DNA from: a virus | Taxonomy: Duplodnaviria > Caudoviricetes | IMG/VR virus record: IMGVR_UViG_3300011116_001227 | Strand: one strand, 5' to 3' | Length of the DNA: 64,000 bases | Part shown: in pieces, positions 26,916 through 49,628 of the stretch | How positions within the stretch are numbered: the stretch's first letter is position 1 | How the letters are laid out: every line of letters begins with the position of its first letter | Made by a program: the position numbers and the translations under genes | Notes under the pieces: generated by a model | The model's input: the letters and a program-made list of their open reading frames with translations, nothing else | Told to the model about the DNA's origin: nothing | Database searches by the model: none

Positions 26916-27710
26916 CTAGACTTCGCTACCATGTTCTACATCGTGGCATCCATCGCACAGGACAACCCCAGAAATATTCTTCTCAATATGATAGTTGGTA
27001 ACCCACTCGGCAATTAAATGTTTTTTCTCGAAGGACTCACCTGGTTCTCCTAGCTCCTGAACAGCCTTAAACAGAATACTGGCAAACCGCTCACCGTCGT
27101 GGTGTACCTCTAACTCCTTGGGCGATCCACATTTGCTGCACTTAAACCCACTGGCTTTCAGCTTCGGGTATACCCAGACGCTGTGCAGATGAGAACGAAC
27201 GAGCGGCTGTAGGGCAGAAGTGCCGCCCCGCCATTGAGAATGAGCAGAACCAGTGAGAGGATACAGGTTACAGTCTTTCCATTGCTGAGTCATATATCTA
27301 GAACGATTTTCTTTAAATTCTTTTGTCCCATATGCCTTCTCTGCAATTTTCTCAAATTCAGGATCATTCTCTTTTGTTTTACCGCGATTCCGTGGATCTT
27401 TGCTCCAAAGCCCTTCGTCGTGGCGTTTCTTCAAGCTCTTCGATCGAGCTTCTTCATTGTGTCCCCAATTATTGTGAACGCGCGAGGCATGCCCTCTGAT
27501 GAACTTCATGTAACCCACTTGCAGAGAGTGGAAGCGGGGAATTTGACCACAGCCGCATTCACATGTGGGTTCCTGCCCATTCAAGAATAATTTCTTGTAT
27601 AAATCAATCGAGGATAATCGGTGTCGTTTTTGACAATGAATTCTGAGTGAATTTAAGCTATCAGATTGATACTCTACACACTCAGGGCAGGTAAATGATA
27701 AAAGGTCCAT
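26916..27710 (-). CDS. putative homing endonuclease: C2H2 finger + CxCGCG module + HNH domain
   Basis: CPEC...HCQKRH, CECGCG...RGH, HSQWRGG, CSKCG..ELEVHH...LCDGCHDVEH. Confidence 0.75.
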   Translation of the reverse strand: MDLLSFTCPECVEYQSDSLNSLRIHCQKRHRLSSIDLYKKLFLNGQEPTCECGCGQIPRFHSLQVGYMKFIRGHASRVHNNWGHNEEARSKSLKKRHDEGLWSKDPRNRGKTKENDPEFEKIAEKAYGTKEFKENRSRYMTQQWKDCNLYPLTGSAHSQWRGGTSALQPLVRSHLHSVWVYPKLKASGFKCSKCGSPKELEVHHDGERFASILFKAVQELGEPGESFEKKHLIAEWVTNYHIEKNISGVVLCDGCHDVEHGSEV

Positions 27711-27779
27711 GGCACATATTGTACCACAGACCTCTTGACTTGTATATTCGATGACTTTATATTTTGTCGAATGTTAATG

Positions 27780-28271
27780 TCAGAATTGTAACACGCAGTT
27801 ATCAAAACGGAGTGTCATAGTGATTTCTGTTGGACCGCCGTCTTCGTAGGTGACGTCGCCGAAGTTAGCTTCTGTGATGAAAGCGCCCTTGATGTCCCAG
27901 AGTTCGACCACAGTTCCGACTGGATCTAGAAGTTTTAGTTGGATGTCGCGCTTGTAGAAGTCTGCATAGCCGCTGCGTCCGCTGACTGACTCAAAGTGAG
28001 TTCGGACCCATTCCATGACCTGTTGTGCGCCGGAAGGTGCGATTGGGTCGTGGAGGGTGACAGCCATTGTGCCGAAGGTTGTCTTGCCCGCGAGGTAGCG
28101 GCGTGAGTTGATGAAGGGGACTTCAACTTCTTCTGTTGTGATTGTGGGTCTAGCAGTTGTCTTGATGATGTAGGCGTCGATGCCTTCAATCATGAGTACC
28201 CATCTATTCTTACGTTTTGGTTCGAATTTCGCGGGTAGCATTGATGATACGTCTAATGTTTCAGCAGCCAT
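27780..28271 (-). CDS. gp19: tail tube protein
   Basis: FEPKRKNRWVL, RPTITTEEVEVPFIN.RRYLAGK, WVRTHFESVSGR.GY, YKRDI.LKLLDPVG.VVE.W.IKGAF, LRFD; follows the sheath genes. Confidence 0.9.
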   Translation of the reverse strand: MAAETLDVSSMLPAKFEPKRKNRWVLMIEGIDAYIIKTTARPTITTEEVEVPFINSRRYLAGKTTFGTMAVTLHDPIAPSGAQQVMEWVRTHFESVSGRSGYADFYKRDIQLKLLDPVGTVVELWDIKGAFITEANFGDVTYEDGGPTEITMTLRFDNCVLQF

Positions 28272-28306
28272 TGTATTTCTCCTGTGTGATCCTCAGATAA
28301 CGATCT

Positions 28307-28313
28307 TAATTAT
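28307..28313 (-). promoter_or_regulatory. putative late promoter motif ATANTTA (ATAATTA)
   Basis: exact motif 35 nt upstream of the tube gene start. Confidence 0.5.
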
Positions 28314-28328
28314 TAGCAAAAAATATTT

Positions 28329-28357
28329 TTTACTATTAAAGATCAGTCAACTATAAT
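28329..28357 (+). promoter_or_regulatory. sigma70-type promoter for the antisense endonuclease gene
   Basis: TTTACT-17 nt-TATAAT, 22 nt before the ATG at 28380. Confidence 0.6.
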
Positions 28358-28379
28358 TCAAGCGGAATAGGAAGATTAA

Positions 28380-30035
28380 ATGGGTGCTGTTGAAGGTAAA
28401 AAATTAGAGTCGCATACATGTCCTCTGTGTGGTGAATTGACAACAAAGCGTCTTACGACATTGACGAAGCACTTCTTTGAAGTTCACAACAAAAAAGACG
28501 AAGAAGTGTGGGAGATGGAGAACGGTCCGCGGCCGACGTGCGCGTGTGGGTGTGGAGGACACACGACTTGGCGAGGATGGGGGAAAGGTTATGGGAAAGT
28601 CGTCAATGGGCACAATGCAAGCATCTACGCTGTATATAATCCTGAAGATGCTGCAAAGATATCAGCATTGCGTTCTGCGTCGTTGACAGGTAGAGAAAGT
28701 TGGTCAAAAGGTCACACAAAAGAGAGCGACGAAAGAATTGCTGCAAGAGCGGCTGCGACTTCTGCTGGAAGAAAAGAAGCGTTCAGCGAAGGTCGAATAA
28801 AGACGTGGAACAAAGGATTGACTGCTGAGTCGGATGAAAGAGTGTTGAGAGCGTCAGAAGATCTGAAGAAGAAGTTTTCTGAGGGTGAAATTGTGCCGTG
28901 GGCAAAGGGACTCAGCAAAGACACAGACGAGCGAGTGTCGAAGATGGCTGCGTCAGTCCGTATCGCTGTACAGCACAAGTCGCTTAGAGACAGGTTAGAT
29001 CAGATTAAGCGTCTTTCTATGGACGAAGTGAAGCAAAGGATCGAATCTTCGGGCGATCTGACAGTCGTAGACGGTCTTCAGAACTACATTAGCGATGCTT
29101 CGCGTGTCATCATCGTGAAGTGCAACAGGTGTGGAACACACACTCAGGGTTCTCTTAGAATGCTGGGTAAGGGAAGGTGTTTTCAGTGCGCACCAGGAGG
29201 ATCAGCAGCTCAAGAAGAAGTCGCGAGGTATGTAGAGAGTTTGGGTGTAGAAGTAAAGAGAAACGATAGAAAGACGATGGCGATGGAATTGGACATATAC
29301 GTTCCTCGCGTAGAGTTTGCTATCGAGTATAATGGGTTGTTTTGGCACAGTCACATCAACAAGCCGCCGCAGTATCACGAGAATAAATCGAGACTTGCAA
29401 AAGAGTGTGGTATTAAATTGCTTCATGTCTTTGAAGACGAGTGGCGGGACAAAAAGAACATTGTTAAATCACTCATATCGTCTCGCCTCGGAATATCGTC
29501 TCTGACCTTGGGTGCTAGAAAGTGTAAAGTAAAAATCTTGACAGCTAGCGAAAGAAAATCATTCTTTGAAGAGAATCACTTGGATGGAGATGTTGCGTCA
29601 GAGGTTGCGTGGGGTCTTGTCAGTAACGGAGAAATCGTGTATGCACTTTCTCTTCGGCGACCTTTTCACAAGAAGTACTCGTCTGGTTTGGAGATATCAC
29701 GTTGTTGTCCTCGCCTCGGACATAATGTGCAGGGAGGATTAAGCAAGTTAGTGAAAATTGCTAGAGAATACTGTAAGACGTCAGGAAAGACGTGCTTGAT
29801 GACTTATGTCGATACTCGATTGGGAGGTCAAGGAAGAGGATACGAGATCTCGGGTTTAAAGAGATCAGGGTCCACAGTTGCTCGTTGGTGGTGGACAGAC
29901 ATGGACAACAGGTTTAATCGCTTTAAATTTAAGGCTAATTCTGAAGAAGGAAAGTCAGAAGCTGAAGTCGCTAGCGAGGCGGGTGTTGTCAAGATATGGG
30001 GTTGCGAGAATGTCGTCTACACATTGGACGTGTGA
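28380..30035 (+). CDS. putative homing endonuclease (T4 Hef-like, PD-(D/E)xK) with C2H2 + CxCGCG module
   Basis: CPLC...HFFEVH, CACGCG...NGH, three W.KG...SDERI/V repeats, CxxC ribbon, ELDIYVP..FAIEYNGLFWHS...LLHVFEDEW nuclease core and Hef-like C-terminal domain; opposite strand to its neighbours. Confidence 0.8.
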   Translation: MGAVEGKKLESHTCPLCGELTTKRLTTLTKHFFEVHNKKDEEVWEMENGPRPTCACGCGGHTTWRGWGKGYGKVVNGHNASIYAVYNPEDAAKISALRSASLTGRESWSKGHTKESDERIAARAAATSAGRKEAFSEGRIKTWNKGLTAESDERVLRASEDLKKKFSEGEIVPWAKGLSKDTDERVSKMAASVRIAVQHKSLRDRLDQIKRLSMDEVKQRIESSGDLTVVDGLQNYISDASRVIIVKCNRCGTHTQGSLRMLGKGRCFQCAPGGSAAQEEVARYVESLGVEVKRNDRKTMAMELDIYVPRVEFAIEYNGLFWHSHINKPPQYHENKSRLAKECGIKLLHVFEDEWRDKKNIVKSLISSRLGISSLTLGARKCKVKILTASERKSFFEENHLDGDVASEVAWGLVSNGEIVYALSLRRPFHKKYSSGLEISRCCPRLGHNVQGGLSKLVKIAREYCKTSGKTCLMTYVDTRLGGQGRGYEISGLKRSGSTVARWWWTDMDNRFNRFKFKANSEEGKSEAEVASEAGVVKIWGCENVVYTLDV

Positions 30036-30204
30036 CAAAAATAAAAAAGGTTGAAAACTTCTTATTTCCAACCACTGCGTTCGAAAAATTTCTTTCCTAA
30101 AATAAGATTCGGAGTTCATCCATTTTGTTTAGATGAACTCCAAAAATCTCTTCTTTAATCAGGCTGTAATTACAGTTAAGAATTAATCAATTAATATTCT
30201 GTAA

Positions 30205-33200
30205 TCACTGTTGGATGTTGTTTGTTACAACGAAGTCGAGAGAGACGAATTCGATGCTCTTTGTTGGCTGAACGAAGATCTTGCCGCGGAGTGTGTTGTT
30301 CTCGATATCGTCCTGTGTTGTTGTGGAGGAGTCGATGACAACCTTGAACCTCTCGAGGCCGCTGAGAGCCTGGATTCTCTGTAGTCGAGGTGTGACAGCT
30401 GAAGAGAAGCGAGCGAGGGTTGCTTCGCGGTTTGGCTCGAACAGAATTGACTGCGCGATGTCGCGAACTTGTCGTCTGATCTCGATGAGAAGTCTTCTCA
30501 CGTTGACTCTGTCTAGAGCAGATGCAGCAACTTGAAGCGTCTTCTGTCCCCAAACCACGAGACCGGAAGCGGGATTTGTTCCACTTCTTGGTGCACCTGG
30601 GAAGGCGACGAGAGGATTGATGCTGTTGTCGTAGAGGCTGTCAAGATCGTTCTGAGTCAATCTAACGCGGGCTTCAAGCGCATCTTGTGGAAGAGCACCT
30701 CTTGTGAAGCCTGCTGGTGCGAACCATGGATGTCCCACAGCGTCGTTCAGCGAGAGAGCGCCGAGGACGACGACCGAAGGTGGAACGAACAGGTTGACTC
30801 CCTTTGGATCTGTGTAGAGAACGTCAGGGAAGTAAGCAGCAGCGAAAGAGCTGTCAACAGATCGGTTCTTGAATGCTGTTAGAGAATTTGTGACAGAAGG
30901 AAGACCGTTCTCGTCTCTGATGTTGTCACTGTTCTCGTCTTGATGTTCAATATCCATGATGAAGAGAGCATCGAATCTCTCTTCTGTAGCTTGAACAGCA
31001 GTGTCAGTGACAAGAGGCTCTCTAATGCCTGGAATTGCGAGAAGTTGAATGTCGACGTTTGTTGTGTTCTTCATGATCTCGATTGCCTTGAGATAAGAAG
31101 AAACGCTTGAACCTTCATTTAATCCGCGTCCTGCACCTGCTGTCATGTCAGCAACAACTGCAAGGTTTGTAATCTCTGCCTCTTCAGCATCGAAGATATT
31201 GACGCCGTCGAATCCACCCTGCATGAATGTTGTGAACTTAGCAAACTTCTTGTTTGTAGAAAGATCGTCGATTTTGAATGGACGAGTCTTGGCAGCATCT
31301 GTTCCAAGATTTGCTGAAAGATATCCTCCAGCTGCAGGAGCTCCGCCTCTGACGTAGACTGCCTTTGCCCATTTGTCTGGATCTGCTGCTCCTGTAGAGC
31401 CTGTCACAACTTGAACGTTCTCAAGCGTGAACAAGTTGTTGCAGAATTCATCAGAATCAAGAACGCCAAGAGCTGCTGTCGCTGCCTGACCTGAATTGCT
31501 TCCTGTGACGAAGTGAGCTTCGCCGACGACGAAATCTGGGAAGTACTTCGCGAAAGACTCAATGCTCATATTTGGAAGAATTGATCCATTCTTCTTTAGA
31601 ATTGTCTCAGGGTGTTCGAACTGCACGCCCCAGTAGAATTCCTTCTCGACCTGTTCCTTCACTGACCACTCGTCACCAGTTGTGATCTTGTGTCTAAAGG
31701 GAAGAGGAGGCGTGATTGAGTTCTTGAGGAACGAAGCTGATGTGTTTGTAACCTGAGAAAGAATTCCTGCAACAGAAGCTGGTCCTAATGCAGCAAGTGG
31801 GCTAGAACCAGAAGTCACCAAGTGGTTGACGCCTCTGAAACCTACTGGAAGTGCTGTAGGATCAACGAATCCGTTCTCGATGTCTTGGTTCATCTCGACT
31901 CGAACGTAGTTAGATTTATTTGCGTAATTACCTTCTACGACGAGCTTCTGAGATGAGAGCTCTCTATCAAAGTCATAGTAAGCGTGAAGATCGCCAATCA
32001 CCTTTGCGATATAACGGTCAGACGATGGATCAAGAGTCACGCCTGCGAATCTTTCGTTTGGAATAACAGACTTAGCAAGATCTCTGTCAGAAAAAGTTCT
32101 AATTACAATGTCGAAAGTTCCGTACTTGTAGAGAGGATCGTTAGACTTGTTGATGTTCTCAATAGAGATCTTAACTTGAGAAGATGCTCCTGCTCCGTCG
32201 TCGAGAGCATGAAGCTTAAAGAGATTGACAGGGTTTCCACCAAATTTTTGAGAGATAAACCATGGTGTCACTGCATGACCGAAACGATCTCTAAAATTCT
32301 CGTAGTTAGGAACGTTTGCTCCGCCCACATTTCTCGAGAGAGAAGATGTCACTAAGAATGAAGCGGGTTCGTGTCCACCGAGAACAGCTGAACCAGATGC
32401 CGCATTAATAACGCCAGAACCTGTTACTGTTGCGAGTGTTGGATGAACATCCCAGTGTGCGTAGAGGTAGTGACCTGCATCTTGCATCTTGAGAGGATCA
32501 GTGTTAAAAACATCAGCAAAGTAGTTGTTAGAAGTGACGTCGAAAGAAGCTGTAAGAACATTTGGGTAAGATGCTTCAGTTCCTTTATGTCCATTTAGCA
32601 ATAGAACGAATTCTTGCTTTACAGTTCCATTCTGTGTTAGATAGGTGCTGCCTAATGTTGTGCCTAGAGCTGTTGCTTCAGCTGCAACCAACGTTGAAGA
32701 AGGAGCAGCTGAAGATAAAGAAGCACCTGGCATAGAAGAGGACATCTTTACTAAGACACCGCTTGGTGCCATTAAAACGCCTCTAACTAAAGGAATTGCT
32801 GCTGCTGACGATTGAATTCCTGCATCGCTTAGATAAGTTGATCCTGCAGATTCTGACATGAAGCATCCGAGGAAGTATGTTCTTCCTGGTACGCCGCTAG
32901 AATTTGCGTATGGATTTGAGCTTATTGTATCTGGATTTGGCTGTTGTTCACCAACAGTAAAACCTGCATTGTTTACGTCACCTGCTGCTAATCTCTTCTT
33001 GCCGTCACCGACGCCAAGAACTCTCAGGTAAGTCACAGCTTGAGCATTTCGAAGCCACTCACGAACTGCGAGTGGTCCAAACTTCTTTCCGTCAGTCTCA
33101 CCAAATTTAGCTGTCCAATCAGATAAGTTTCCTACTGTAACCGGCACGAATGCTGGTCCGTGTATTGCTGTACCAATTATTCCAGCCGGGACACCCACAG

Positions 33201-33276
33201 GTTGTTGTGTTGTTGGACCTGTGAGGTCAATTTCTCTAGCTGTTACGCCTGCGCTTCCGAACTTTAATTTTGCCAT
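30205..33276 (-). CDS. gp18: tail sheath protein (copy 1)
   Basis: SAGVTAREIDL, GTAIHGPAFVPV, FGETDGKKFGP, PWFAPAGFTRG, LQVAASALDRVNVRRLL, FEPN, PTKSIEFVSLDF. Confidence 0.92.
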   Translation of the reverse strand: MAKLKFGSAGVTAREIDLTGPTTQQPVGVPAGIIGTAIHGPAFVPVTVGNLSDWTAKFGETDGKKFGPLAVREWLRNAQAVTYLRVLGVGDGKKRLAAGDVNNAGFTVGEQQPNPDTISSNPYANSSGVPGRTYFLGCFMSESAGSTYLSDAGIQSSAAAIPLVRGVLMAPSGVLVKMSSSMPGASLSSAAPSSTLVAAEATALGTTLGSTYLTQNGTVKQEFVLLLNGHKGTEASYPNVLTASFDVTSNNYFADVFNTDPLKMQDAGHYLYAHWDVHPTLATVTGSGVINAASGSAVLGGHEPASFLVTSSLSRNVGGANVPNYENFRDRFGHAVTPWFISQKFGGNPVNLFKLHALDDGAGASSQVKISIENINKSNDPLYKYGTFDIVIRTFSDRDLAKSVIPNERFAGVTLDPSSDRYIAKVIGDLHAYYDFDRELSSQKLVVEGNYANKSNYVRVEMNQDIENGFVDPTALPVGFRGVNHLVTSGSSPLAALGPASVAGILSQVTNTSASFLKNSITPPLPFRHKITTGDEWSVKEQVEKEFYWGVQFEHPETILKKNGSILPNMSIESFAKYFPDFVVGEAHFVTGSNSGQAATAALGVLDSDEFCNNLFTLENVQVVTGSTGAADPDKWAKAVYVRGGAPAAGGYLSANLGTDAAKTRPFKIDDLSTNKKFAKFTTFMQGGFDGVNIFDAEEAEITNLAVVADMTAGAGRGLNEGSSVSSYLKAIEIMKNTTNVDIQLLAIPGIREPLVTDTAVQATEERFDALFIMDIEHQDENSDNIRDENGLPSVTNSLTAFKNRSVDSSFAAAYFPDVLYTDPKGVNLFVPPSVVVLGALSLNDAVGHPWFAPAGFTRGALPQDALEARVRLTQNDLDSLYDNSINPLVAFPGAPRSGTNPASGLVVWGQKTLQVAASALDRVNVRRLLIEIRRQVRDIAQSILFEPNREATLARFSSAVTPRLQRIQALSGLERFKVVIDSSTTTQDDIENNTLRGKIFVQPTKSIEFVSLDFVVTNNIQQ

Positions 33277-33300
33277 TTAAGCTCTCCAATTACTACTAAC

Positions 33301-33307
33301 TAACTAT
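33301..33307 (-). promoter_or_regulatory. putative late promoter motif ATANTTA (ATAGTTA)
   Basis: exact motif 24 nt upstream of the sheath copy 1 start. Confidence 0.5.
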
Positions 33308-33323
33308 CAGTTAAAGATCATTT

Positions 33324-36374: not shown

Positions 36375-36404
36375 TCTATTATCTCCTTAACAAATACCGA
36401 TCAG

Positions 36405-36411: not shown

Positions 36412-36415
36412 TGTC

Positions 36416-41419: not shown

Positions 41420-41507
41420 AATTTACCTCTGTAATATTAGAACCAGTGGTTCCTATGCTTCTATAATAAGACAGAGGTATGTCTATGTTCAAAACTTGAT
41501 CTTGTAA

Positions 41508-41816
41508 TTATTTTTCTTCAATCTTAGACATCAGTATACCAACCTTCTTAGAAGCATCTGGGTCTGCTGCAAGCAAAGCTTTTACAAATGCTAAAAGAGC
41601 TGCTCCCTTGCTAGCATCGCCCTTTTTGGCAGCGAGAACTGCAACTTTTAATGTCTGTTCATCCATGCCTAATTGATTAGCGATCTCTTTTGTATTGAGC
41701 TGTCCCTTTGTGTCTGTTTTTTCGCCTTTTGCAGAAGCTGCTGAGTCTTCTCCTCCTTCTCGAAGAATCTCTTGACGAATAATTTTACGTAATTGTAGTT
41801 CTGTTAATTTTATCAT
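41508..41816 (-). CDS. small protein with MIKLTxxQLRKIIxxE leader
   Basis: MIKLTELQLRKIIRQEILRE; ATACTTA motif at 41832-41838. Confidence 0.65.
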   Translation of the reverse strand: MIKLTELQLRKIIRQEILREGGEDSAASAKGEKTDTKGQLNTKEIANQLGMDEQTLKVAVLAAKKGDASKGAALLAFVKALLAADPDASKKVGILMSKIEEK

Positions 41817-41954
41817 TTTTTTTACTTTATTTAAGTATCCAAGAAATTTATTCGGGTCCCAGAGTTTAAATATAAAAAATTACTAAATTATTGGCTGTTG
41901 CCAACAAAAACAAAAGGCGATATTTTCTAATGCCCTGCTTATTAAACAAAGCAG

Positions 41955-43556
41955 TTATTTCGAATTAATTAATCCTGATATAATATTGGGTGAATTACCA
42001 AATTCTGCAGTCTTATTTCCGTCACCTCTAGCAACAGCATAAACTGCTGCAGTTGAAGCAAAAGAAGAAACCTGTTCAGATGTCTTTGACACGTCATCTG
42101 CACCAGTGACCGGATTGAATCCAACAGCATTCTTTCCTCCAACCTTGTTGGCATAAACATGTCCAAACCAACCGTTCTTGATGTTTGCTTTAGGATCCAT
42201 AACATAGAGCCAATTGCAACCGTCGGGAGTTGCGTCAGGCCACGCATTTCCTTGAAGTGGTGTATGAGGAGTATCGCCATATGCGACAAACGTCGTGTTT
42301 TGATCTAGCTTTTCTGTCACACTCTCAGGATCAGTCTGCTGTGACAGATAGTTGTAGAAGCCATTCAGGACCTTCCCTAGGTGTTTTGTGGTATTTCTGC
42401 CTTGGTTCATTAAGGTAGAATTATCAAATGTAACGTGGGGGTCTGTGAAGGTCGTGTCGGAGGTCGGTCCTGGGGATAATGCTACTATCGCAGTCTTCGA
42501 TAACCCAAGAGTAAATGCCTTAGCAACTACGATAAGAACTCTACCAAATTCTTCTATTTGATTTTTTTGAGAAGGCGTCATATAAGAAGAAGATGAAGCT
42601 GCACCGTCGAGCATCTCTTGAATTCCAAAATCAGATAAGTCTTGGCTTGTTGGAGTCAACTGCGAAGCAAAGTTAAGTCCAATGATTCGTGCTGCATTCT
42701 TTGTGACAGACATCTGAGGTAACCATGTAGATCGGCTAGAAGACTTTCTTAGTCCGACAAGTGCTTTATAATAGACCTCAAATAACTCCTGATCGTTTTT
42801 GCTGATTAGAGCAAATTGACTTGCTGCAGAATTAAAAAGATCGATCATTCCTGCAGAGCTTGGAACAGTTGCTACTTCAGGAGCACCTGGCGCTCTTCCA
42901 TACTTGACGGGATCTATTCCAAGGACAGGTACAATCGCGCCTGAACCTGCTGATCCGAGAGATGCAAGTGCTGCCACCATAGTAGAATTACCAGACAATG
43001 ATGTAGAAGAAGTTGGAAATTCTGTGTGTGTCTCATCCTTTCCAGACATGAAGGCAGAGACAGGATACTTTGGGGTTCCTGTAGAATGATCGAACCAAGG
43101 AGCATCAGGACCATAGAAGAAAGGTCTGTCACCGCCTGACCAACTCTTTACGCCAGCTGGAAGAGACGGAATGACATTTCCCTTACCTGATGTGTACGTT
43201 CCACGGTATCCGCTTCCCGGATTGTATCCGTACTGAGACGTATAGAGGTAAGAAGAAAATCCACCGAACTGCGATGTTAATCCAGGAACGTTGGCATTTT
43301 GACATGCCTTGAGACCAACATCAGCGACGGGCCACAGTTCTTGAAACCACGCCTGTGATCCATTTGGAGCTGGTACTATTAATGAACGACCAAATGTAGA
43401 TCCGGCAGCTTCAGCAAGTCCCGATCCACCCTCGTCTGATAAAAAGTTTAAAAGTTTACTTCTCTCAATTCCCACAGCAGCAGCAACAACTGTGCACATT
43501 TTTAGAAATGTTCTGCGTTGTTCTCCTCGAAGATCTTTTAATTTCCAGTTAGACAT
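41955..43556 (-). CDS. Tat-exported protein, DUF1501/DUF1552-like
   Basis: twin-arginine signal QRRTFLKM + hydrophobic stretch + AEAA cleavage-like site; C-terminal DPH...LDQNTTFVAYGDTPHTP resembles the DUF1501 LDDTLVV..SEFGRTP region. Confidence 0.6.
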   Translation of the reverse strand: MSNWKLKDLRGEQRRTFLKMCTVVAAAVGIERSKLLNFLSDEGGSGLAEAAGSTFGRSLIVPAPNGSQAWFQELWPVADVGLKACQNANVPGLTSQFGGFSSYLYTSQYGYNPGSGYRGTYTSGKGNVIPSLPAGVKSWSGGDRPFFYGPDAPWFDHSTGTPKYPVSAFMSGKDETHTEFPTSSTSLSGNSTMVAALASLGSAGSGAIVPVLGIDPVKYGRAPGAPEVATVPSSAGMIDLFNSAASQFALISKNDQELFEVYYKALVGLRKSSSRSTWLPQMSVTKNAARIIGLNFASQLTPTSQDLSDFGIQEMLDGAASSSSYMTPSQKNQIEEFGRVLIVVAKAFTLGLSKTAIVALSPGPTSDTTFTDPHVTFDNSTLMNQGRNTTKHLGKVLNGFYNYLSQQTDPESVTEKLDQNTTFVAYGDTPHTPLQGNAWPDATPDGCNWLYVMDPKANIKNGWFGHVYANKVGGKNAVGFNPVTGADDVSKTSEQVSSFASTAAVYAVARGDGNKTAEFGNSPNIISGLINSK

Positions 43557-43569
43557 TTTTTACCTCGAT

Positions 43570-44583
43570 TCACTGACAAGAATGTGCTGCACTGAGAAGA
43601 GCAGCTACTGCGATAATCCTCTTTTTATTTAAATCGCTTAGATCATTTGGATTTGCTTTCTGAATAATTAAATTGCACAGAAGCATGTGATCATCCGTAG
43701 CTGCTTGTCCAATTAAGCAACTCACATTTTCTTCTACACAACTACCATCTGACACGTTAAACATTGGCTTGTTCTTTCCATTTAAAGTGCATGCAGGCGC
43801 TTTTGAAGGATCAGAAATATTTGTAATAATTTGAGGTGCAGCTTGAATAAAAATATCCATAATTTTCATTGCAGATGCAGTAGTATGTTCATCCTTTTCG
43901 CCTAGACGAGAATCAAGCTTAGGCACACCTAACGCATTCTTACCTGTATAATAAAGGTAACCAGGCGTTGAAATTTTAGTTACACAGTAACCATCTTTTG
44001 CGTCAGGAGAGTTGTTTCCGACGTCAAGACAAGTACGATTAATTTCGTTCTGCTTGTCATCCTGATTGCAGAAGCACGCTTCTCCGTTTGGACACAATGG
44101 ATCATTACCTTGTCCGGATCCGTTTGCGGTGGTGTCAGCCATTTCACAAGCTGAATTACCTCCGCCAAAAACGTTACCTAACGACTGAGAAGCACCAAAA
44201 ATTGTTACTTGCGTAGTTTTTAAATCAGAAACACTGCCTTGAGGAATTGAGGCTCCACGTGAACGCAACAAATTACCAAGCTGCGTATATGATAATTTAT
44301 GGCAGCTATGCAGTCTAGAAATAATTTCATCTGCAGCAGGAGGCTGATAAGATGGAACTACACTCATACCACCAGAACCATCTTGTGAAGATCCGCTCGA
44401 TGAAGAACTAGATGATGTTGAAACTAAAGAATTTGTTCCACCTGAGCCTGCCATAGAAGATGAAGATACAGATGACACTGCTTCCTGTTCAGGGCAATCG
44501 TATTCTTCAATATCTGGTGGAGTAGATCCACAAGCTAAAATTAATACAAACAGTGTTGCAAATCCAAATAGATTCTTGTTCAT
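43570..44583 (-). CDS. cysteine-rich lipoprotein
   Basis: MNKNLFGFATLFVLILAC signal/lipobox (start 44583, 1 nt after the upstream stop), Ser/Gly linker, many Cys. Confidence 0.7.
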   Translation of the reverse strand: MNKNLFGFATLFVLILACGSTPPDIEEYDCPEQEAVSSVSSSSMAGSGGTNSLVSTSSSSSSSGSSQDGSGGMSVVPSYQPPAADEIISRLHSCHKLSYTQLGNLLRSRGASIPQGSVSDLKTTQVTIFGASQSLGNVFGGGNSACEMADTTANGSGQGNDPLCPNGEACFCNQDDKQNEINRTCLDVGNNSPDAKDGYCVTKISTPGYLYYTGKNALGVPKLDSRLGEKDEHTTASAMKIMDIFIQAAPQIITNISDPSKAPACTLNGKNKPMFNVSDGSCVEENVSCLIGQAATDDHMLLCNLIIQKANPNDLSDLNKKRIIAVAALLSAAHSCQ

Positions 44584-44584
44584 T

Positions 44585-46063
44585 TTAAAACCTCGTGAAA
44601 TCATCTGAGACTAGAATTTCTCTAAACACTTTCTTTAAGTTATAGTTGTTAGACTTAAACATAACGACAAACTTCGACATTGTCATTAATTCTGGATTTG
44701 GATCATTTCGATCAGGCATACTAACCCAGTTTCTTCCACCGACTTCTGTGATATCTGATCTACCCATCGCATAATTCCACATCCTCTTGACGGCGCACTC
44801 AAGGACTTCATCATCCTTTGACATCTGCTGTCCTAACTCTGACAGACTAGATGCAGGTGCAGGTGTTTCTACGCCATTAACTTTCATAACCTTCTTCCAC
44901 GCAGTTCCATTCTGACCTCCATTAGGACACTTTGAAGGATCAATGCAAAGCCAGTCTGATAACTTTGCACGTGGTGATCCAGGAACAGGAACGAATACTG
45001 AATATTCTCCTGCACCTGTCAGCATCTGATAGACGCCTTTTGAATCGAATTGTGAAAATAGCGGTGCTCTATGATTCCACGTCGCATGACAGTTTGCACA
45101 CACGTTGGCAACGTTATAGGCATGAAAGTCAATTCTACCTCCGTTACATGCACCGGCAATTTCATCGACGGACCATTTATTTTGGTACCCAGGAATCGGA
45201 GTTCCACCGCTACAGGGAGGATTTTGTGGAGGAACATCAGTCGGCTCTCCTCCTGCCTGCTCATTTCCATTTCGACAAAGAAAAGTCTCGTGGAAGAATC
45301 GATTTCGCCTGAACGAAAGATTTCCAAAGAAGATACTTTGAACGCCTGGATCAGTTAAAATTCCTGACGACTTCATCCCGACTCCCATGTTGTTACAATT
45401 ACCGTCAGAGAACACGTGAGTCGTCTGATTGTATGTGGGACACGCGTTGGCATCTTGAGTCAGCAACAATCTCCAATCTTTTTCTTCATAGAAGATTCTT
45501 GCAGCTAATGTGGGGGCAGTCTCACGAGTCGGTTCACCCGGTGTAGTGGAGGGACCGGACATCTTGAAGGTGTAGCGATAAAAGTCCAACATGGTATCAG
45601 CAAAACGAGGATCTGCGAGCTTCTTATCAATGAGCTCTTCATACTTTGCCTTCTGTAGGTCTTTTGGCAAATCGCTCAGCTGATAGATTTCAGAAACTGT
45701 AGGTACGTCTCCAACAATCAGAAAACTCGCTGTTCTTAAGGCTTCTGAATAATCGACTTCTCTCTCGTCCAACTCTGTCTTTTCTAATTGAGGTTGATTT
45801 CCTGATCCTGTAGAAACAGTAGATGAGACTTCTGCAACAGTTGCAACAATTTCATTTCCTGAAGTTGTTGTAGAAGATTTTTCACTTGGAACTACAACTT
45901 CACCAGATCCTGTCGATGGAGTAGGACAGTACTTGTAAATCGATGCTGAAGTGTCACCTGAGGCTTTATTCGGATTAGGACGTTCACACCCGTAGAATAA
46001 GAACGCCATAGAAACAATAACAAAAAAACTACGTTTTAAGAATTTGTTCTTTTCTTCTGACAT
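44585..46063 (-). CDS. lipoprotein with CxxCH motif, DUF1549/DUF1588/DUF1585-like
   Basis: lipobox FYGC; EALRTASFLIVGDVPT...YEELIDKKLADPRF (DUF1549-like); CANCH; ELGQQM...ECAVKRMWNYAMGR...YNLKKVFREILVSDDF (DUF1553/1585-like). Confidence 0.65.
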   Translation of the reverse strand: MSEEKNKFLKRSFFVIVSMAFLFYGCERPNPNKASGDTSASIYKYCPTPSTGSGEVVVPSEKSSTTTSGNEIVATVAEVSSTVSTGSGNQPQLEKTELDEREVDYSEALRTASFLIVGDVPTVSEIYQLSDLPKDLQKAKYEELIDKKLADPRFADTMLDFYRYTFKMSGPSTTPGEPTRETAPTLAARIFYEEKDWRLLLTQDANACPTYNQTTHVFSDGNCNNMGVGMKSSGILTDPGVQSIFFGNLSFRRNRFFHETFLCRNGNEQAGGEPTDVPPQNPPCSGGTPIPGYQNKWSVDEIAGACNGGRIDFHAYNVANVCANCHATWNHRAPLFSQFDSKGVYQMLTGAGEYSVFVPVPGSPRAKLSDWLCIDPSKCPNGGQNGTAWKKVMKVNGVETPAPASSLSELGQQMSKDDEVLECAVKRMWNYAMGRSDITEVGGRNWVSMPDRNDPNPELMTMSKFVVMFKSNNYNLKKVFREILVSDDFTRF

Positions 46064-46075
46064 ATAGACTCATTA

Positions 46076-46082
46076 TAACTAT
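46076..46082 (-). promoter_or_regulatory. putative promoter of the lipoprotein/Tat cassette (ATAGTTA overlapping TATAAT)
   Basis: minus strand reads TTTATAGTTATAATGAGTCTATATG up to the 46063 start. Confidence 0.4.
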
Positions 46083-46140
46083 AAATTGAATGGTAAGATA
46101 AACTTTTAAAAAAATACAACATGTAATTAAGCAATTATTT

Positions 46141-46494
46141 TTAAGAATTTTTTAAAGTCAAATGAGATAAACGATGATGCTTCTTTCTAAGAACAAGAGG
46201 ATTGTCTTTGACGAGCCAGAATTCTTTCTCTAGCGGAGGTTCTTCTCCTGCTTTAAACCACATCAACTTTCTTCCGCAAGACGAAGAATATACGCCAATT
46301 ATCGTTATCTCTCCAGCATGAATTAGATCATGACACGTGTGACACACTATAGCCAAATTGTGATTGTCGTTGGAGCATCGAGGATCGCACCGCGGAATGA
46401 TGTGGTGAAAGTTCAACGCCGCAGACCGATCAAACCCACAGACCTCGCACTGTTTTTTGACGAGTTTAGGTTGATTTCTGCTGCGACGCTTCAC
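46141..46494 (-). CDS. small HNH endonuclease
   Basis: CEVCG...LNFHHIIP...NLAIVCHTCHDLIH. Confidence 0.8.
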   Translation of the reverse strand: MKRRSRNQPKLVKKQCEVCGFDRSAALNFHHIIPRCDPRCSNDNHNLAIVCHTCHDLIHAGEITIIGVYSSSCGRKLMWFKAGEEPPLEKEFWLVKDNPLVLRKKHHRLSHLTLKNS

Positions 46495-46581
46495 TCGCTT
46501 TATTATACAATTCAGCGAAAATCTTAAATGAAATCAACGATACAATTATGACAACTCGTTCGCAGAAGGATATATAAAGAC

Positions 46582-47286
46582 ATGTTGTACGACAAGATTG
46601 TTCGTCGGCTGCTGAAAGAATCAAAGCTCGATTCATTCGCTCGTCAAATTAACAGAATGACGATGGACGGCATAAAAAACGTTATTTCTTCTAAATCGAC
46701 AAAAAGAAAAAATAAATTTCGATTTAAAAACGAAGCAACCGACAAAGATGGCACATCTATAGAGGTTGTCACTGACGTATTATTTCGCGAGAACAACAAT
46801 CGAGTGTCCGTAAGTGCCGGCTGGGACTGGCAAAATAGAGTAATGGACGTTCTCGTAAAAATTCCCGATGGAGTCGACAACTATAAAAATCTGCAAGAAA
46901 TTCAATCGAAGCTCTACGAAGCTATTAGACACGAGCTGGAACATTCCACACAAAGTGACGAAGAGGTTGATTCAGCAGAAGAAGCATATCACGACTTCGA
47001 ACAAGACAAATACGACATTGACGCGATTAAGAACTACTACTCTAACGAATCAGAAATACCTGCATTCGTTGCTGGTATTTATCACGCAGCAAAGCGTCTT
47101 CGAAAACCATTCTACCAATTAATGGAAGACAGGTTGGAAAAAATAAAGAAAAATATGAGCAAAAGAGCTGATGATATAGAACCCAGCTACATCAATTCAT
47201 CCGTAGAAGAAATAAGAACTGCGTGGAAAAATTACGCAAGTTTAAGATTTCCGAAAGCAGTCTTAAACAATACCTCAAATGATTAA
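46582..47286 (+). CDS. putative zinc metallopeptidase (HExxH)
   Basis: IRHELEHSTQ followed by YYSNESEIPAF (candidate third ligand Glu). Confidence 0.55.
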   Translation: MLYDKIVRRLLKESKLDSFARQINRMTMDGIKNVISSKSTKRKNKFRFKNEATDKDGTSIEVVTDVLFRENNNRVSVSAGWDWQNRVMDVLVKIPDGVDNYKNLQEIQSKLYEAIRHELEHSTQSDEEVDSAEEAYHDFEQDKYDIDAIKNYYSNESEIPAFVAGIYHAAKRLRKPFYQLMEDRLEKIKKNMSKRADDIEPSYINSSVEEIRTAWKNYASLRFPKAVLNNTSND

Positions 47287-47318
47287 TTAATTGTCTGGCG
47301 TAGCATGCATTAAGAGTT

Positions 47319-47396
47319 AAGCGACGCGGACGTTCGTATCCGCAGATTTCACAATGGTCTTTTACACAATTTTTCTTTTCAACGTCTGCGTCGCTT
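47319..47396. repeat. 16-bp inverted repeat with 46-nt spacer
   Basis: AAGCGACGCGGACGTT (47319-47334) and AACGTCTGCGTCGCTT (47381-47396); one mismatch that is a G-U pair on the plus strand. Confidence 0.8.
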
Positions 47397-47435
47397 CACA
47401 AGAAAGATTATAAGCAAATTATCGTGTTGTTAAAT

Positions 47436-47460
47436 TAAAAAACCGCAGCAGAGCCGCGGT
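47436..47460 (-). terminator. intrinsic terminator
   Basis: minus-strand stem ACCGCGGC-TCT-GCTGCGGT followed by a T-run, just after the 47486 stop. Confidence 0.75.
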
Positions 47461-47485
47461 CTCTTAAAACACAAAGTGATTGTTC

Positions 47486-47935
47486 TCAGGTTCCGCTGAA
47501 TGTCATCGTTCCTGAAACTGCTGTCTGCAAGAAAGACTTGCCGTCGCAGATATAAGCTGCTGCATTGCCAAGAATCGCTTGAAATGTAGATTTGCTGCCG
47601 TGACCAGCATTGTTTCCTGTTCCCGCAGATCCAGCAAACACTAGAGTTCCAGGATCTTCTTGAGAGCCTGTAAGGACGTGTGCCGTTGCAGAAGCATTTC
47701 TAAAAACGAAAAGAGATCCTGGCACTGTCGCTGCAAGAGGCATTGTAACAGTAACAGCAGATGCGCCGCTGATTGTGTACACGCCGCCAGCAACGAGTGT
47801 TGTGTTTGATGTAATAGGCGTAATTGTAACGACTGGTGTTGATGCAAATGTAATTGCAGAATCAATCTGCACGCCTGTCTGACCGCCAATCTGATTGAAA
47901 CCTGATGTGTCGTCAATCTTAACTTTAATACTCAT
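47486..47935 (-). CDS. putative virion structural / decoration protein
   Basis: 149 aa, Thr/Ser/Gly/Ala-rich, beta-strand-like; AAGGAG SD and ATATTTA motif at 47983-47989. Confidence 0.5.
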   Translation of the reverse strand: MSIKVKIDDTSGFNQIGGQTGVQIDSAITFASTPVVTITPITSNTTLVAGGVYTISGASAVTVTMPLAATVPGSLFVFRNASATAHVLTGSQEDPGTLVFAGSAGTGNNAGHGSKSTFQAILGNAAAYICDGKSFLQTAVSGTMTFSGT

Positions 47936-48029
47936 TGTGATTTTTCTCCTTGAATTTCCCCCACACTAAAATTGGGACACACTAAATATAGACTAGTCGA
48001 TTATTTAAAATAATTGTTCTATAGTCGAA

Positions 48030-48473
48030 TTATTTAGACATCATATAAGACTTGAATGCATCACTTCCAATAGCGTGATGCTTTCCTTCAATCTGATAAT
48101 AAAGATTCACACCGACGTTTAACGACCATTGCACCATCCAATTGAGAGTCTTAACGTCAAGTTTTCCCCCTGCTTCTGCAACCTCATAATGCGTGAGATC
48201 AGGTTGAGAAGGTAAAATAATTTTTGAAATTATGACTCCTGTTAAGTCAGGTCTCATCCACTCTGGAAAAGTTTCCTGCTCGGCGAGCCACGCGCAATTA
48301 TACGTTTTGCATACATCTGGACGACCTACATAATCAGTACATTTTCCTTTCGAGAGAAAGAAACAAGGACAACCTGGATACATGCTGTGACCTTTAATAT
48401 TAGCTGACAACCATCCTTCACAACACTTTGTGCATTCTCCACAAGTTCTATTTGCAATTTTTAATTGTTTCAT
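48030..48473 (-). CDS. YkgJ-like cysteine-cluster (Zn/Fe-chelating) protein
   Basis: CGECTKCC...CPCFFL..GKC..Y..RP.VCKTYNCAW; start taken at MKQLKIA (48473). Confidence 0.7.
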   Translation of the reverse strand: MKQLKIANRTCGECTKCCEGWLSANIKGHSMYPGCPCFFLSKGKCTDYVGRPDVCKTYNCAWLAEQETFPEWMRPDLTGVIISKIILPSQPDLTHYEVAEAGGKLDVKTLNWMVQWSLNVGVNLYYQIEGKHHAIGSDAFKSYMMSK

Positions 48474-48756
48474 CTGATTCCCAGTTTGATTTACCCACTG
48501 GATAACACTTGTAACATCTGCTGCCTCTTTCAAATGCTTGAAGAGTCTTTGGTTGAACTTCTCCACACTTCACGCATTCAAATTTGAGATACTGCTGTTG
48601 TCTTGATCTGTATTCTTCTAGATTTGTAATTAATTTAAACTCTTTTGATCTCTCTAATATTCTTTCTTCTATTGTTAAAGTTACCAACATTTTATTTTCA
48701 GATATTTTTTTAAGAGTCTCCTGGGTGTGGTGTCGACCATAAAAATGGTTTCCGGG
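48448..48756 (-). pseudogene. internal fragment of a NUMOD3 / Hef-like homing endonuclease
   Basis: frame upstream of the 48690 ATG is open and reads PGNHFYGRHHTQETLKKISENK (NUMOD3-like); downstream CVKC...RCYKCYP parallels CNRC...RCFQCAP of the 28380 protein; no nuclease core. Confidence 0.65.
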
Positions 48757-48757
48757 A

Positions 48758-48790
48758 ATACATTAACTGAATGTTTATAAACTACAAAGG
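48758..48790 (+). repeat. 33-bp direct repeat, copy 1
   Basis: ATACATTAACTGAATGTTTATAAACTACAAAGG; 32/33 identical to 49642-49674. Confidence 0.92.
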
Positions 48791-48800
48791 ACATGTTGAT

Positions 48801-49628
48801 TCAAGACAGCTCTGCATCCTCCGGGGCGAGCATCACCACGAACCACCAATTGCGCTTCTCACAGAAAGCCTTCGCGGCGTCCCACTTGGCCTGGTCCACG
48901 GCGTCGTGGCGACCCTTCACCTCGTACAGGGTGCGGTCGTCAAATCCGTAGAAATCAGGAATGTAAGTCCGAGTGGTGCCGTCGGGGTGGGTATAGGGAA
49001 TCTGGATGCCGTGGTTCTTGGTGACGTGGTACTGGCGAGACACGCAGGCCTGGTAGAACGCTGACTCCCAAGACGAGTGCATGTGCTCCTCCTCGCCGGT
49101 CCACGGGCTGATCAGGGTCTCACGCTTGAAGGGAGCGTGCGGTCCGATCTTGTTGTCAGCCAAGAGCTGCACGGCACGAGCGGAGGCTTCTTGCCGGAGG
49201 ACGGGTGCGAGGGGCGACTCAGCCCAGAAGCGACGAATAGACTCTGTCTGTTTCTTTATTGCCTCAGGAGTTTTTGAAAGAGGATTCATCTTTTTTATTC
49301 TCTTTTTTGCTACATCTGGGTGTTTTGACATGAATTCTTTCATGTTTACAGAGTTCTTCCTCCCGATCTTCGCCTTCTCTTCTTCAGATTTGATTCTGCC
49401 ATGTGCGTGATGTCCGTGAATAAATCGGGTAAAATCCTTTAAGGCAATATTCCACTTATTTTTGGAACCACATCCACAAGCACAGTGTGGAGCTTGTCCA
49501 CCGTATTTCCACTTGAGCACGTATTCTTGCGCGTTGATCTTGTGACATCGAATGTGTCTTAAGACGAACTCTAATGAATCGAATTCAGTATTACACTCTT
49601 TACAGACATTGTCAATTTCAGTTAACAT
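48801..49628 (-). CDS. putative homing endonuclease: C2H2 + CxCGCG module + TnsA-like PD-(D/E)xK domain
   Basis: CKEC...HIRCH, CACGCG...HGH, NUMOD3-like KSEEEKAKIG, SSWESAF, IPYTHPDGTTRTYIPDF...LYEVKG...KWDAAKAFC. Confidence 0.78.
   Translation of the reverse strand: MLTEIDNVCKECNTEFDSLEFVLRHIRCHKINAQEYVLKWKYGGQAPHCACGCGSKNKWNIALKDFTRFIHGHHAHGRIKSEEEKAKIGRKNSVNMKEFMSKHPDVAKKRIKKMNPLSKTPEAIKKQTESIRRFWAESPLAPVLRQEASARAVQLLADNKIGPHAPFKRETLISPWTGEEEHMHSSWESAFYQACVSRQYHVTKNHGIQIPYTHPDGTTRTYIPDFYGFDDRTLYEVKGRHDAVDQAKWDAAKAFCEKRNWWFVVMLAPEDAELS

Follow-up and report, generated by a model that had tools for sequence, protein, structure and literature searches.

Three open reading frames (P0001, P0002 and P0003) of a large uncultured phage share an unannotated N-terminal two-zinc module of about 80 amino acids, carry a different nuclease domain at each C-terminus, and are probably free-standing homing-endonuclease genes that belong to a single modular superfamily from uncultured phages. 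They lie in the window, i.e., a 64,000-nt stretch of IMG/VR record IMGVR_UViG_3300011116_001227 (Duplodnaviria; Caudoviricetes), and were found at the coordinates given in a preliminary description of this DNA, which had also placed them beside tube, sheath and capsid genes; their neighbours are indeed the tail tube gene, two tail sheath genes and the gene of the major head protein (Table 1). P0002 occupies the gap between sheath and tube genes, in antisense orientation to them. The three proteins are expected to bind zinc and DNA, to cleave DNA and to support homing of their genes, and the neighbouring structural genes would be their targets.

Table 1. Coordinates of the module-nuclease genes, their domains and the bordering genes and repeats in the window
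Feature	Coordinates	Strand	Details and basis
P0001 (264 aa)	26916..27710	-	Module, linker and HNH endonuclease; just downstream of tail tube gene; AF2 mean pLDDT 89
P0001 HNH domain (aa 164-264)	26919..27221	-	CSKC 191-194, HH 203-204, N239, CDGCH 252-256, H260
P0001 module (aa 1-82)	27465..27710	-	C2H2 finger C8, C11, H25, H30; CxCGCG..GH knuckle C50, C52, C54, H74
Tail tube gene	27780..28271	-	phrog_4542, E 6.8e-31; module cassettes on both sides
P0002 (551 aa)	28380..30035	+	Module, three W.KG..DE.R repeats, zinc ribbon, EDxHD/Vsr-like nuclease and GNAT-like domain; PHROG 3339
P0002 module (aa 8-86)	28401..28637	+	Sequence similarity
P0002 linker repeats (aa 108, 143, 174)	28701..28949	+	Three W.KG.[TS]..[ST]DER repeats; sequence motif
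P0002 zinc ribbon, nuclease core and C-terminal half	29109..30032	+	Zinc ribbon CNRC 248-251 and CFQC 267-270; core with candidate E-D-x-H-D residues by motif (ELD 303-305, H323, ED 352-353); GNAT-like half; PHROG 3339
Tail sheath gene	30205..33276	-	Borders P0002 slot; phrog_23, E 4.9e-56
P0157 (80 aa)	48448..48690	-	Remnant of a second, Hef-type cassette; zinc-ribbon part kept, module and nuclease lost
Direct repeat, copy 1 (36 nt)	48758..48793	.	Downstream of P0003; 94% identical to copy 2
P0003 (275 aa)	48801..49628	-	Module, helical linker and TnsA/T7-endo-I-like PD-ExK nuclease; just downstream of major capsid gene; PF08722
P0003 nuclease domain	48819..49091	-	E188, D225 (IPDF), E236-x-K238; PF08722 and invariant columns
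P0003 module (aa 4-84)	49377..49619	-	Sequence similarity
Direct repeat, copy 2	49642..49677	.	Upstream of P0003, directly after capsid terminator-like hairpin; repeat comparison
Major head protein gene	49731..51608	-	Borders P0003 slot; phrog_138, E 5e-74

The module has the same layout in all three proteins, with CxxC-x13-14-H-x3-4-H followed by [T/H]-C-[E/A]-C-G-C-G and by G-H about 20 residues further on, and C.CGCG was present in P0001, P0002 and P0003 only when all six frames of the window were scanned. The shared C2H2 and CxCGCG...GH pattern that had been described for these N-termini was recovered by pairwise BLASTP over 69–77 aligned residues (P0001 vs P0003, E 1e-9; P0001 vs P0002, E 1e-11), with the three copies merely 27–33% identical to one another. 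Across 124 module copies, C8, C11, H25, C50, C54 and H74 (P0001 numbering) were invariant and H30 and C52 were kept in at least 90%; all eight Cys/His residues were fixed in each of the four site/class lineages of related loci, with variation at surface residues. Structure prediction of the module, which had been proposed along with the preliminary description, yielded a confident model (AF2, pLDDT 88–93 over residues 11–70). The first half shows classical C2H2 spacing (C8-x2-C11-x13-H25-x4-H30 in P0001) and was modelled as a hairpin followed by a helix at residues 19–30, i.e., as beta-beta-alpha. Residues 2–42 best matched the C2H2 finger of AFV1p06 (Z 5.0, rmsd 1.7 over 40 aa, the Z being modest because the domain is small), positions 2–30 of the family profile aligned to the DNA-binding C2H2 fingers of CTCF, Aart and Zif268-type proteins, and weak Pfam zf-C2H2 matches were obtained for 10–16 of 149 module-family members. 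Profile and model identify the first half as a classical beta-beta-alpha C2H2 finger plus an extra helix, for which zinc and DNA binding are predicted. The second half is a Cys3-His knuckle (CxCGCG, beta-hairpin, GH) of a kind modelled by no family library: no model in Pfam, NCBIfam or PHROG covered the CxCGCG half, and residues 45–80 gave no match, in structure or sequence, to anything of known function.

The nuclease domains were largely as previously described. P0001 was confirmed as an HNH (beta-beta-alpha-Me) endonuclease by predicted fold and motif, not by a curated model: its C-terminus aligned to T5 SciA (9qgx; Z 8.2, rmsd 2.7 over 93 aa), the GVE2 HNH protein (Z 5.6) and McrA (Z 5.0) in VIA-align, and it carries the HNH signature residues (HH203-204, N239, H256/H260, and the CSKC and CDGC pairs), with no match to HNH models in Pfam, NCBIfam or PHROG. 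For P0002, the Hef-like assignment was borne out by PHROG 3339 (E 1.4e-68); its tblastn matches were to genes annotated Hef-like in AR9, PBS1 and PA5oct, the Hef-class family profile matched I-Bth0305I (3r3p, E 0.0019) and GCN5 (E 6e-5), and a DUF559 model built in this analysis overlapped the nuclease core. In the Hef-class alignment, D305, E316 and W355 were invariant or nearly so. P0003 exceeded the cut-off of PF08722 (41.2 vs 26.5 bits), in agreement with the TnsA-like C-terminus claimed for it, and E188, D225, E236 and K238 were invariant in 15 TnsA-class members; with the P0003-class profile, E was 5.8e-6 for T7 endonuclease I (1m0d) and 0.13 for TnsA. The three domains differ, but calling the families unrelated overstated the case for the Hef-type and TnsA-type enzymes because the P0002 and P0003 nucleases both have a restriction-endonuclease-type fold. 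Repeats of the W.KG....DE.R type, said to be shared by two of the ORFs, were clear only in P0002 (three copies), as against a single degenerate copy in P0001 (aa 109) and none in P0003; in each protein, the part between module and nuclease is a helical linker, and NUMOD3 (PF07460) did not match the three linkers at E<=10.

For the survey of partner domains suggested in the preliminary description, a profile of the module was searched against 1.84 billion metagenome protein cluster representatives, which gave 978 protein clusters at E<=1e-3 (164 at E<=1e-10). The module was nearly always N-terminal, in one to four copies, and the CxCGCG knuckle also occurred alone in arrays of 3–8. Partners in the 150 best matches were P0001-like HNH (29), DUF559/Vsr (21), Hef (17) and TnsA-like domains (15), and more rarely HNH_3 with NUMOD3 (4) and a GIY-YIG-like domain (1; MUG113/T5orf172); NUMOD3 was also carried by 11 of 149 module-family members. 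Across metagenomes, the module is combined with five or more nuclease families. No copy was found in cultured phages or bacterial reference genomes.

Three intergenic slots were compared in 160 related viral contigs and were either empty or filled by different module-nuclease cassettes. Of 76 relatives compared at the sheath-tube slot, 35 had it empty, at less than 300 nt, and 20 had an antisense module+Hef gene there. Downstream of the tube gene, 62 relatives were compared (empty, 15; module+HNH, 11; module+TnsA, 11; module+Hef, 8), and on the tube-gene tree this slot changed its state at least 26 times. Downstream of the capsid gene, the slot was either empty or occupied by a TnsA, Hef, DUF559 or tandem cassette. 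Homology at the DNA level to relatives that lack a cassette ended at the gene borders, including those of the tube gene. Orthologues of P0001 (58–72% identity) occupied the same slot in 11 related contigs, as did those of P0003 (71–75% identity) in L082, L084 and L087. In the contigs L003 and L004, flanks that are 97–98% identical enclose a TnsA-type and an HNH-type cassette, respectively; the exchange begins 7 nt past the tube stop codon and is a clean cassette replacement. In six contigs, the TnsA-type gene is followed by a 3′ remnant of an HNH gene that is 82–95% identical to P0001 aa 227–264. With their own ORFs in intergenic slots, with borders at gene ends and with close relatives that do without them, the genes behave as optional cassettes whose occupancy changes between near relatives, like free-standing homing-endonuclease genes; this agrees with the free-standing homing endonucleases proposed in the preliminary description.

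The further claim that the module is swapped onto different catalytic domains stands as far as homology, the variety of partners and mosaic ancestry are concerned: one relative's TnsA-type protein is a mosaic whose N-terminal 164 aa are 43% identical to HNH-type P0001 (E 5e-36), as compared with 21% identity to TnsA-type P0003 over the whole length. It does not extend to the one recent event that could be resolved (L003/L004), in which the whole cassette was exchanged and not a domain within a gene. Module lineage appeared to track the insertion site, which is suggestive but not significant: Hef-type modules at the downstream-of-tube slot were 28–33% identical to the HNH/TnsA-type modules there, lineage was not cleanly matched to site, and grouping of modules by nuclease class was not rejected by AU tests (p 0.21 and 0.69).

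In the most likely mechanism, the zinc module and linker would anchor the enzyme at a DNA site in or beside the conserved neighbouring gene of a cassette-free phage, the tethered nuclease would then cut close by, and repair by recombination from a co-infecting cassette-bearing genome would copy the cassette into the intergenic slot. Being separable, module and nuclease heads have been recombined repeatedly in evolution, and one slot is contested by cassettes that have related modules but different heads. Among known enzymes, the zinc fingers of I-TevIII are required for DNA binding (PMC1865063), and EDxHD enzymes have their DNA-binding regions at the N-terminus (PMC3239194). As a tentative extension, which is possible but on balance doubtful, the ~80-aa unit and the ~40-aa CxCGCG..GH knuckle alone might be autonomous DNA-reading repeats, placed in arrays of 1–8 before interchangeable heads as natural zinc-finger nucleases, so that the module lineage, and not the nuclease, would set the homing site; on this view, it would be understandable that cassettes carrying related modules and either an HNH or a TnsA-like head contend for one slot behind the tail tube gene.

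The proteins could also be homing endonucleases whose module organises the linker, sets the cutting distance, dimerises or regulates, with specificity residing in linker helices or the nuclease domain. I-TevI's zinc finger is a distance-setting linker element that orders the linker and is not a DNA binder, I-TevIII has its dimer interface in the region of the zinc fingers (PMC1865063), and most of the specificity of I-Bth0305I lies in its nuclease domains, which read the central site (PMC3239194). Given I-TevI and I-Bth0305I, the module need not be the specificity determinant, and the module trees cannot tell grouping by site from grouping by class. We nevertheless consider such a non-recognition role unlikely, as profile and predicted fold both place a classical C2H2 finger in the module's first half, conservation is confined to the metal ligands and the helix surface differs from lineage to lineage, as would be expected of a diversifying recognition surface, and tandem arrays of 2–8 units are typical of DNA readers, not of linkers. 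Still less probable is that the proteins have been domesticated, either to regulate the late structural genes next to them in a sequence-specific way or to serve as nucleases against rival phages or satellites, instead of driving homing. All three genes adjoin highly expressed structural genes, and I-TevI also serves as a repressor; in the ICP1/PLE system, CapR and Odn are co-opted homing-endonuclease-related domains (PMC10448857). Domestication fits poorly with patchy presence, with fast replacement of occupants even between genomes 97–98% identical, and with the decayed copies (P0157 and the HNH 3′ remnants), and the predicted catalytic residues are intact; the many empty slots in relatives argue for selfish, dispensable elements. 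A chance or convergent Cys/His pattern, or recent duplication within one genome, can be dismissed despite the recurrence of short Cys/His motifs by chance and the occurrence of three genes in one genome, because of the pairwise E-values, the 978 clusters sharing the profile, the low identity between the copies and the closer orthologues at the same slots of other phages.

Shared DNA-binding modules on different nuclease families are an already established concept, and the module, being common in uncultured phages, therefore represents a new, presumably DNA-binding, part within a known modular design. The NUMOD-type modules are likewise small DNA-binding parts recombined among unrelated phage nuclease families; unlike NUMOD3, the present module is predicted to be zinc-dependent, is about 80 aa long and N-terminal, and is followed in the window's own proteins by linkers without a Pfam NUMOD3 match. 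In T4-type phages, the free-standing genes segH and hef reportedly replace mobC and mobE (an observation attributed to Sandegren et al. 2005). Different endonuclease genes likewise share an intergenic slot of related phages there, but the competing cassettes described here have a homologous N-terminal module in common. The EDxHD/Vsr-like enzymes (phage Hef, I-Bth0305I; PMC2677866, PMC3239194, PDB 3r3p), which occur in phages free-standing or in fractured genes (PMC2677866, PMC3239194), have the same layout of N-terminal DNA-binding region and C-terminal nuclease, and P0002 belongs to this group by PHROG 3339, its Hef-like relatives and the 3r3p profile match; described members have NUMOD-type helix-turn-helix N-termini, whereas the C2H2 and CxCGCG module found here also sits on HNH and TnsA-like heads. 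The phage HNH homing endonuclease I-TevIII similarly has zinc fingers of C2H2-like spacing (CX2CX12-13HX3C), but these are, as described, two C-terminal CCHC fingers without the CxCGCG..GH knuckle (PMC1865063). In the CapR/DUF723/DUF4397 arrays of T5orf172 enzymes, a nuclease is likewise joined to repeats of a DNA-binding zinc-finger domain, and the same work describes domain shuffling and places cassettes where exchanged phage segments begin or end (PMC10448857). The CapR family finger is CxxC...CxC, unlike the present module, whose partners are mainly HNH, Vsr-like and TnsA-like; P0001–P0003 had no Pfam match to DUF723 or DUF4397 (PF05265, PF14344) at E<=1, and neither was among the 25 commonest families in the 149 module-family relatives, but the two kinds of finger may be distantly related.

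As an unannotated, virus-restricted marker of roughly a thousand protein clusters that at present are listed as hypothetical, the module would make homing-endonuclease cassettes recognisable in metagenomic phage genomes. The three slots in 160 contigs constitute a well-sampled natural setting, with the same front end and exchangeable heads, for asking which part sets target choice. If module and knuckle arrays do read DNA modularly, the zinc-finger-nuclease type would have in them a second natural scaffold.

Decay and repeats were also observed at the slot next to the capsid gene. The remnant P0157 shares 55–83% identity with the corresponding stretch of intact module+Hef genes that occupy this slot in L082, L083, L096, L107 and L122. 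P0003 is flanked by both copies of the direct repeat, and relatives with a P0003 orthologue have the upstream copy only. Ahead of P0002, a match to a sigma-70-like promoter was located at 28329–28357.

The window was a block of structural genes from a large uncultured tailed phage, and megablast searches with both regions returned no near match among cultured phages. The tube, sheath and capsid genes were identified by PHROG profiles, and three ORFs (P0001, P0002 and P0003) that a preliminary description had placed beside these genes do adjoin them (see table). All three N-termini carry CxxC-x13-14-H-x3-4-H, followed by [T/H]C[E/A]CGCG and, about 20 residues on, a GH; within the window, a six-frame scan confined C.CGCG to these ORFs. 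The N-termini were 27–33% identical and matched each other with E 1e-9 (P0001 vs P0003) and 1e-11 (P0001 vs P0002), so that motif order and E-values bear out the claim of a common N-terminal module. Across an alignment of 124 module copies, C8, C11, H25, C50, C54 and H74 (P0001 numbering) were strictly invariant, and H30, C52, G53 and G73 were kept in at least 90%. In four site/class lineages of related loci, the eight Cys/His were the only fixed positions and surface residues varied. This fixed pattern fits two predicted zinc sites, Cys2His2 and Cys3His.

Features of the window discussed in the text, with the basis of their identification
Feature	Coordinates	Strand	Basis or remark
P0001, 264 aa	26916-27710	-	directly downstream of tube gene
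Tail tube gene	27780-28271	-	PHROG profile
P0002, 551 aa	28380-30035	+	between sheath and tube genes, antisense
Tail sheath gene, first of tandem pair, ~1020 aa	30205-33276	-	PHROG profile
Tail sheath gene, second of tandem pair, ~1020 aa	33324-36374	-	PHROG profile
Small HNH endonuclease gene, 117 aa	46141-46494	-	PHROG 144, E 2.9e-7
ORF with HELEH motif, 234 aa	46582-47286	+	no PHROG match
Cys-rich protein gene, 178 aa	48030-48566	-	phrog_9155, unknown function
Cassette remnant, 80-aa ORF	48448-48690	-	decayed middle (zinc ribbon) of a module+Hef gene
Direct repeat, downstream copy, 36 nt	48758-48793		brackets P0003
P0003, 275 aa	48801-49628	-	directly downstream of capsid gene
Direct repeat, upstream copy, 36 nt	49642-49677		brackets P0003; copies 94% identical
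Major head protein gene	49731-51608	-	PHROG profile

The sheath genes are paralogues, and in most related contigs the sheath C-terminus is likewise matched twice, at an interval of about 3 kb; this phage group has thus kept the duplication.

Behind the module, the proteins differ. Residues 164–264 of P0001 form an HNH domain by fold (T5 SciA, Z 8.2, rmsd 2.7, 93 aa; also GVE2 HNH, Z 5.6, and McrA, Z 5.0), in which HH203-204, N239, H256/H260 and two CxxC pairs are present; of the curated HNH models in Pfam, NCBIfam and PHROG, none matched its sequence. P0002 is Hef-like (PHROG 3339, E 1.4e-68, aa 166–549), with tblastn matches to genes annotated as Hef-like in AR9, PBS1 and PA5oct, and a profile of 17 members of this class matched 3r3p, the core of I-Bth0305I (E 0.0019). 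In a later stretch (alignment A6 positions 200–293), the same profile matched GCN5-type acetyltransferases (E 6e-5), in agreement with a weak match to the Mom-like DNA modification protein PHROG 1384 (E 2e-4); the C-terminal half of Hef-like endonucleases (P0002 aa ~375–551, window 29500–30032) thus looks like a GNAT/GCN5-type acetyltransferase fold. To our knowledge, such a domain has not been described in Hef proteins. P0003 matched the TnsA-like N-terminal nuclease PF08722 (41.2 bits, cut-off 26.5), its class profile matched T7 endonuclease I (E 5.8e-6) and TnsA (E 0.13), and E188, D225, E236 and K238 are invariant across the class. Three distinct nuclease families therefore stand behind one module; they had been called unrelated, which is too strong for the P0002 and P0003 types, since these share a restriction-endonuclease-type fold. 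The W.KG..DE.R repeats said to be common to two ORFs were clear in P0002 (three copies), but P0001 holds a single degenerate copy, and P0003 has none. Pfam NUMOD3 matched none of the three linkers.

Structure prediction had been proposed as a check on the module. Predicted by AlphaFold2 from the family alignment, P0001 reached a mean pLDDT of 89 and the module modelled alone 84 (residues 11–70 at 88–93). Residues 2–42 were modelled as a beta-hairpin followed by two helices, and the best VIA-align match, the AFV1p06 C2H2 finger (Z 5.0, rmsd 1.7, 40 aa), gives them a C2H2 fold; many classical DNA-binding fingers followed at Z 2–3, and family profile positions 2–30 aligned to CTCF, Aart and Zif268-type fingers. 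Residues 45–80 were modelled with the CxCGCG, a beta-hairpin (60–67) and the GH opening a short helix; fold and sequence searches left them unmatched, VIA-align matching the C2H2 half only. Foldseek against the PDB returned nothing at E ≤ 0.001, and look-alikes in the ESM Atlas were unnamed viral clusters.

For the survey of partner domains, likewise proposed earlier, a profile built from the three modules was searched against 1.84 billion representative proteins; 978 of them matched at E ≤ 1e-3, and 164 still did so at E ≤ 1e-10. In the best 150, the module was almost always N-terminal and occurred in one to four tandem copies, and its second half alone formed arrays of 3–8 units with a period of ~40–50 aa. 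The metagenomic proteins P0008, P0011, P0016, P0024 and P0124 lack the C2H2 half and consist of 4–8 tandem CxCGCG..GH knuckles; in some of them the rest of the protein is just a short tail, and no nuclease was recognised. The C-terminal 110 residues of the best 150 were clustered and named with Pfam, and several nuclease families proved to be joined to the module: P0001-like HNH (29 clusters), DUF559/Vsr-like (21), Hef-like (17), TnsA-like (15), HNH_3 with NUMOD3 (4), TnsA-like with a methylase match (3) and GIY-YIG-like (MUG113/T5orf172; 1), the remainder being short or partial proteins. All ten clusters that were looked up were metagenomic and unnamed or “hypothetical protein.” No model in Pfam, NCBIfam or PHROG covers the CxCGCG half. 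By tblastn, 50,697 cultured-phage records held no copy of the module (P0001 aa 1–86 found nothing; the sole match of P0002 aa 1–120 was a Vibrio phage hypothetical protein at E 0.06), and a pattern scan of one genome per species (185,579 bacterial and archaeal species) found none, both methods being less sensitive than the profile.

The occupancy of the intergenic slots was compared in two sets of 80 viral contigs, one around tube-gene relatives (80–99% identical) and the other around relatives of the capsid C-terminus (82–99% identical). Between sheath and tube, 35 of 76 contigs had nothing (gap < 300 nt; 53–192 nt), 20 had a module+Hef gene, always antisense like P0002, and 21 had other content. 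Downstream of the tube gene, 15 of 62 slots were empty (37–297 nt) and the others included module+HNH (11/62), module+TnsA-like (11/62) and module+Hef (8/62) cassettes, all beginning 55–128 nt past the tube stop. Downstream of the capsid gene, the slot was empty in L094 and L098, where the conserved Cys-rich protein gene directly follows; other relatives carried module+TnsA-like, module+Hef or module+DUF559, and L082, L107, L109, L114 and L146 carried two cassettes in tandem. The DNA similarity of the window to cassette-free relatives broke off where the sheath, tube and next genes end. The tube-gene tree implies at least 26 changes of state in the downstream slot and, in the upstream slot, 11 changes of the Hef state, with HNH- and TnsA-type occupants interleaved among near-identical tube genes. 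In the contigs L003 and L004, whose flanks are 97–98% identical over ~5 kb, a TnsA-type cassette replaces an HNH-type one from 7 nt past the tube stop into the 3′ end of the HNH ORF; a domain swap within the gene was ruled out for this pair, as the whole cassette including the module was exchanged. In L003, a stretch of ~710 nt (L003:5924-6636) separates the HNH remnant from the conserved gene that comes next; it is absent from L004 and is a further optional insert in this slot.

Fossils of former occupants were also found. The last ~38 HNH codons survive behind the TnsA-type gene in six contigs (82–95% identical to P0001 aa 227–264). In the window, the Hef-type remnant has lost module and nuclease and runs into the next gene at its 3′ end; the matching gene is intact at the slot in L082, L083, L096, L107 and L122. 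The downstream repeat copy beside P0003 sits where a Hef-type gene lost its 5′ part and is specific to this genome, because relatives with a P0003-orthologous cassette (L082, L084 and L087) have the upstream copy alone. Optional presence, replacement and fossils are the behaviour of free-standing homing-endonuclease genes, and empty slots, replacement and turnover among relatives support the mobility postulated before.

Shuffling was evident from a TnsA-type protein in L016: over its first 164 residues it shares 43% identity with the HNH-type P0001 (E 5e-36), and over its whole length only 21% with the TnsA-type P0003 (E 4e-10); judged by its sequence, it is a mosaic. This mosaic and the distinct heads on homologous modules demonstrate domain shuffling between module and nuclease heads, as the preliminary description had supposed. 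In the downstream-of-tube slot, the modules of HNH-type cassettes were on average 47% identical to those of TnsA-type cassettes. Mean module identity was 26% when TnsA-type cassettes of the tube slot were compared with those of the capsid slot, and 19–32% among Hef-type cassettes across the three slots. In the module tree, capsid-slot modules (TnsA, Hef and DUF559 heads) grouped together (SH-aLRT 80), as did downstream-of-tube HNH- and TnsA-type modules (88), and Hef modules of both tube flanks formed their own clade (95). That module lineage may track target site is only suggested and was not claimed, because grouping by nuclease class survived AU tests (TnsA-type p 0.21, Hef-type p 0.69; only 81 columns).

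DNA-binding modules on endonucleases are an established general design: GIY-YIG enzymes share NUMOD modules with HNH enzymes (as cited in PMC2677866, PMC3239194), the EDxHD family, Hef included, has N-terminal DNA-binding regions (PMC3239194), I-TevIII needs two CX2CX12-13HX3C fingers for DNA binding (PMC1865063), and T5orf172 endonucleases combine repeated CapR/DUF723/DUF4397 zinc fingers with domain shuffling (PMC10448857). No description of the CxCGCG motif or of a C2H2-Hef fusion was found in the literature. New are the module (most of all its CxCGCG..GH half), the breadth of its nuclease partners, its apparent limitation to uncultured phages and a set of well-sampled slots where cassettes whose front ends are related and whose heads differ take each other's place. 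The evidence supports the earlier interpretation as regards homology, shuffling and mobility; DNA binding by the module, and cleavage and target choice by P0001–P0003, are putative functions.

Between the neck and capsid genes, the small HNH endonuclease gene and the opposite-strand ORF with the HELEH motif that adjoins it (46141-47286) make up another endonuclease-associated island.
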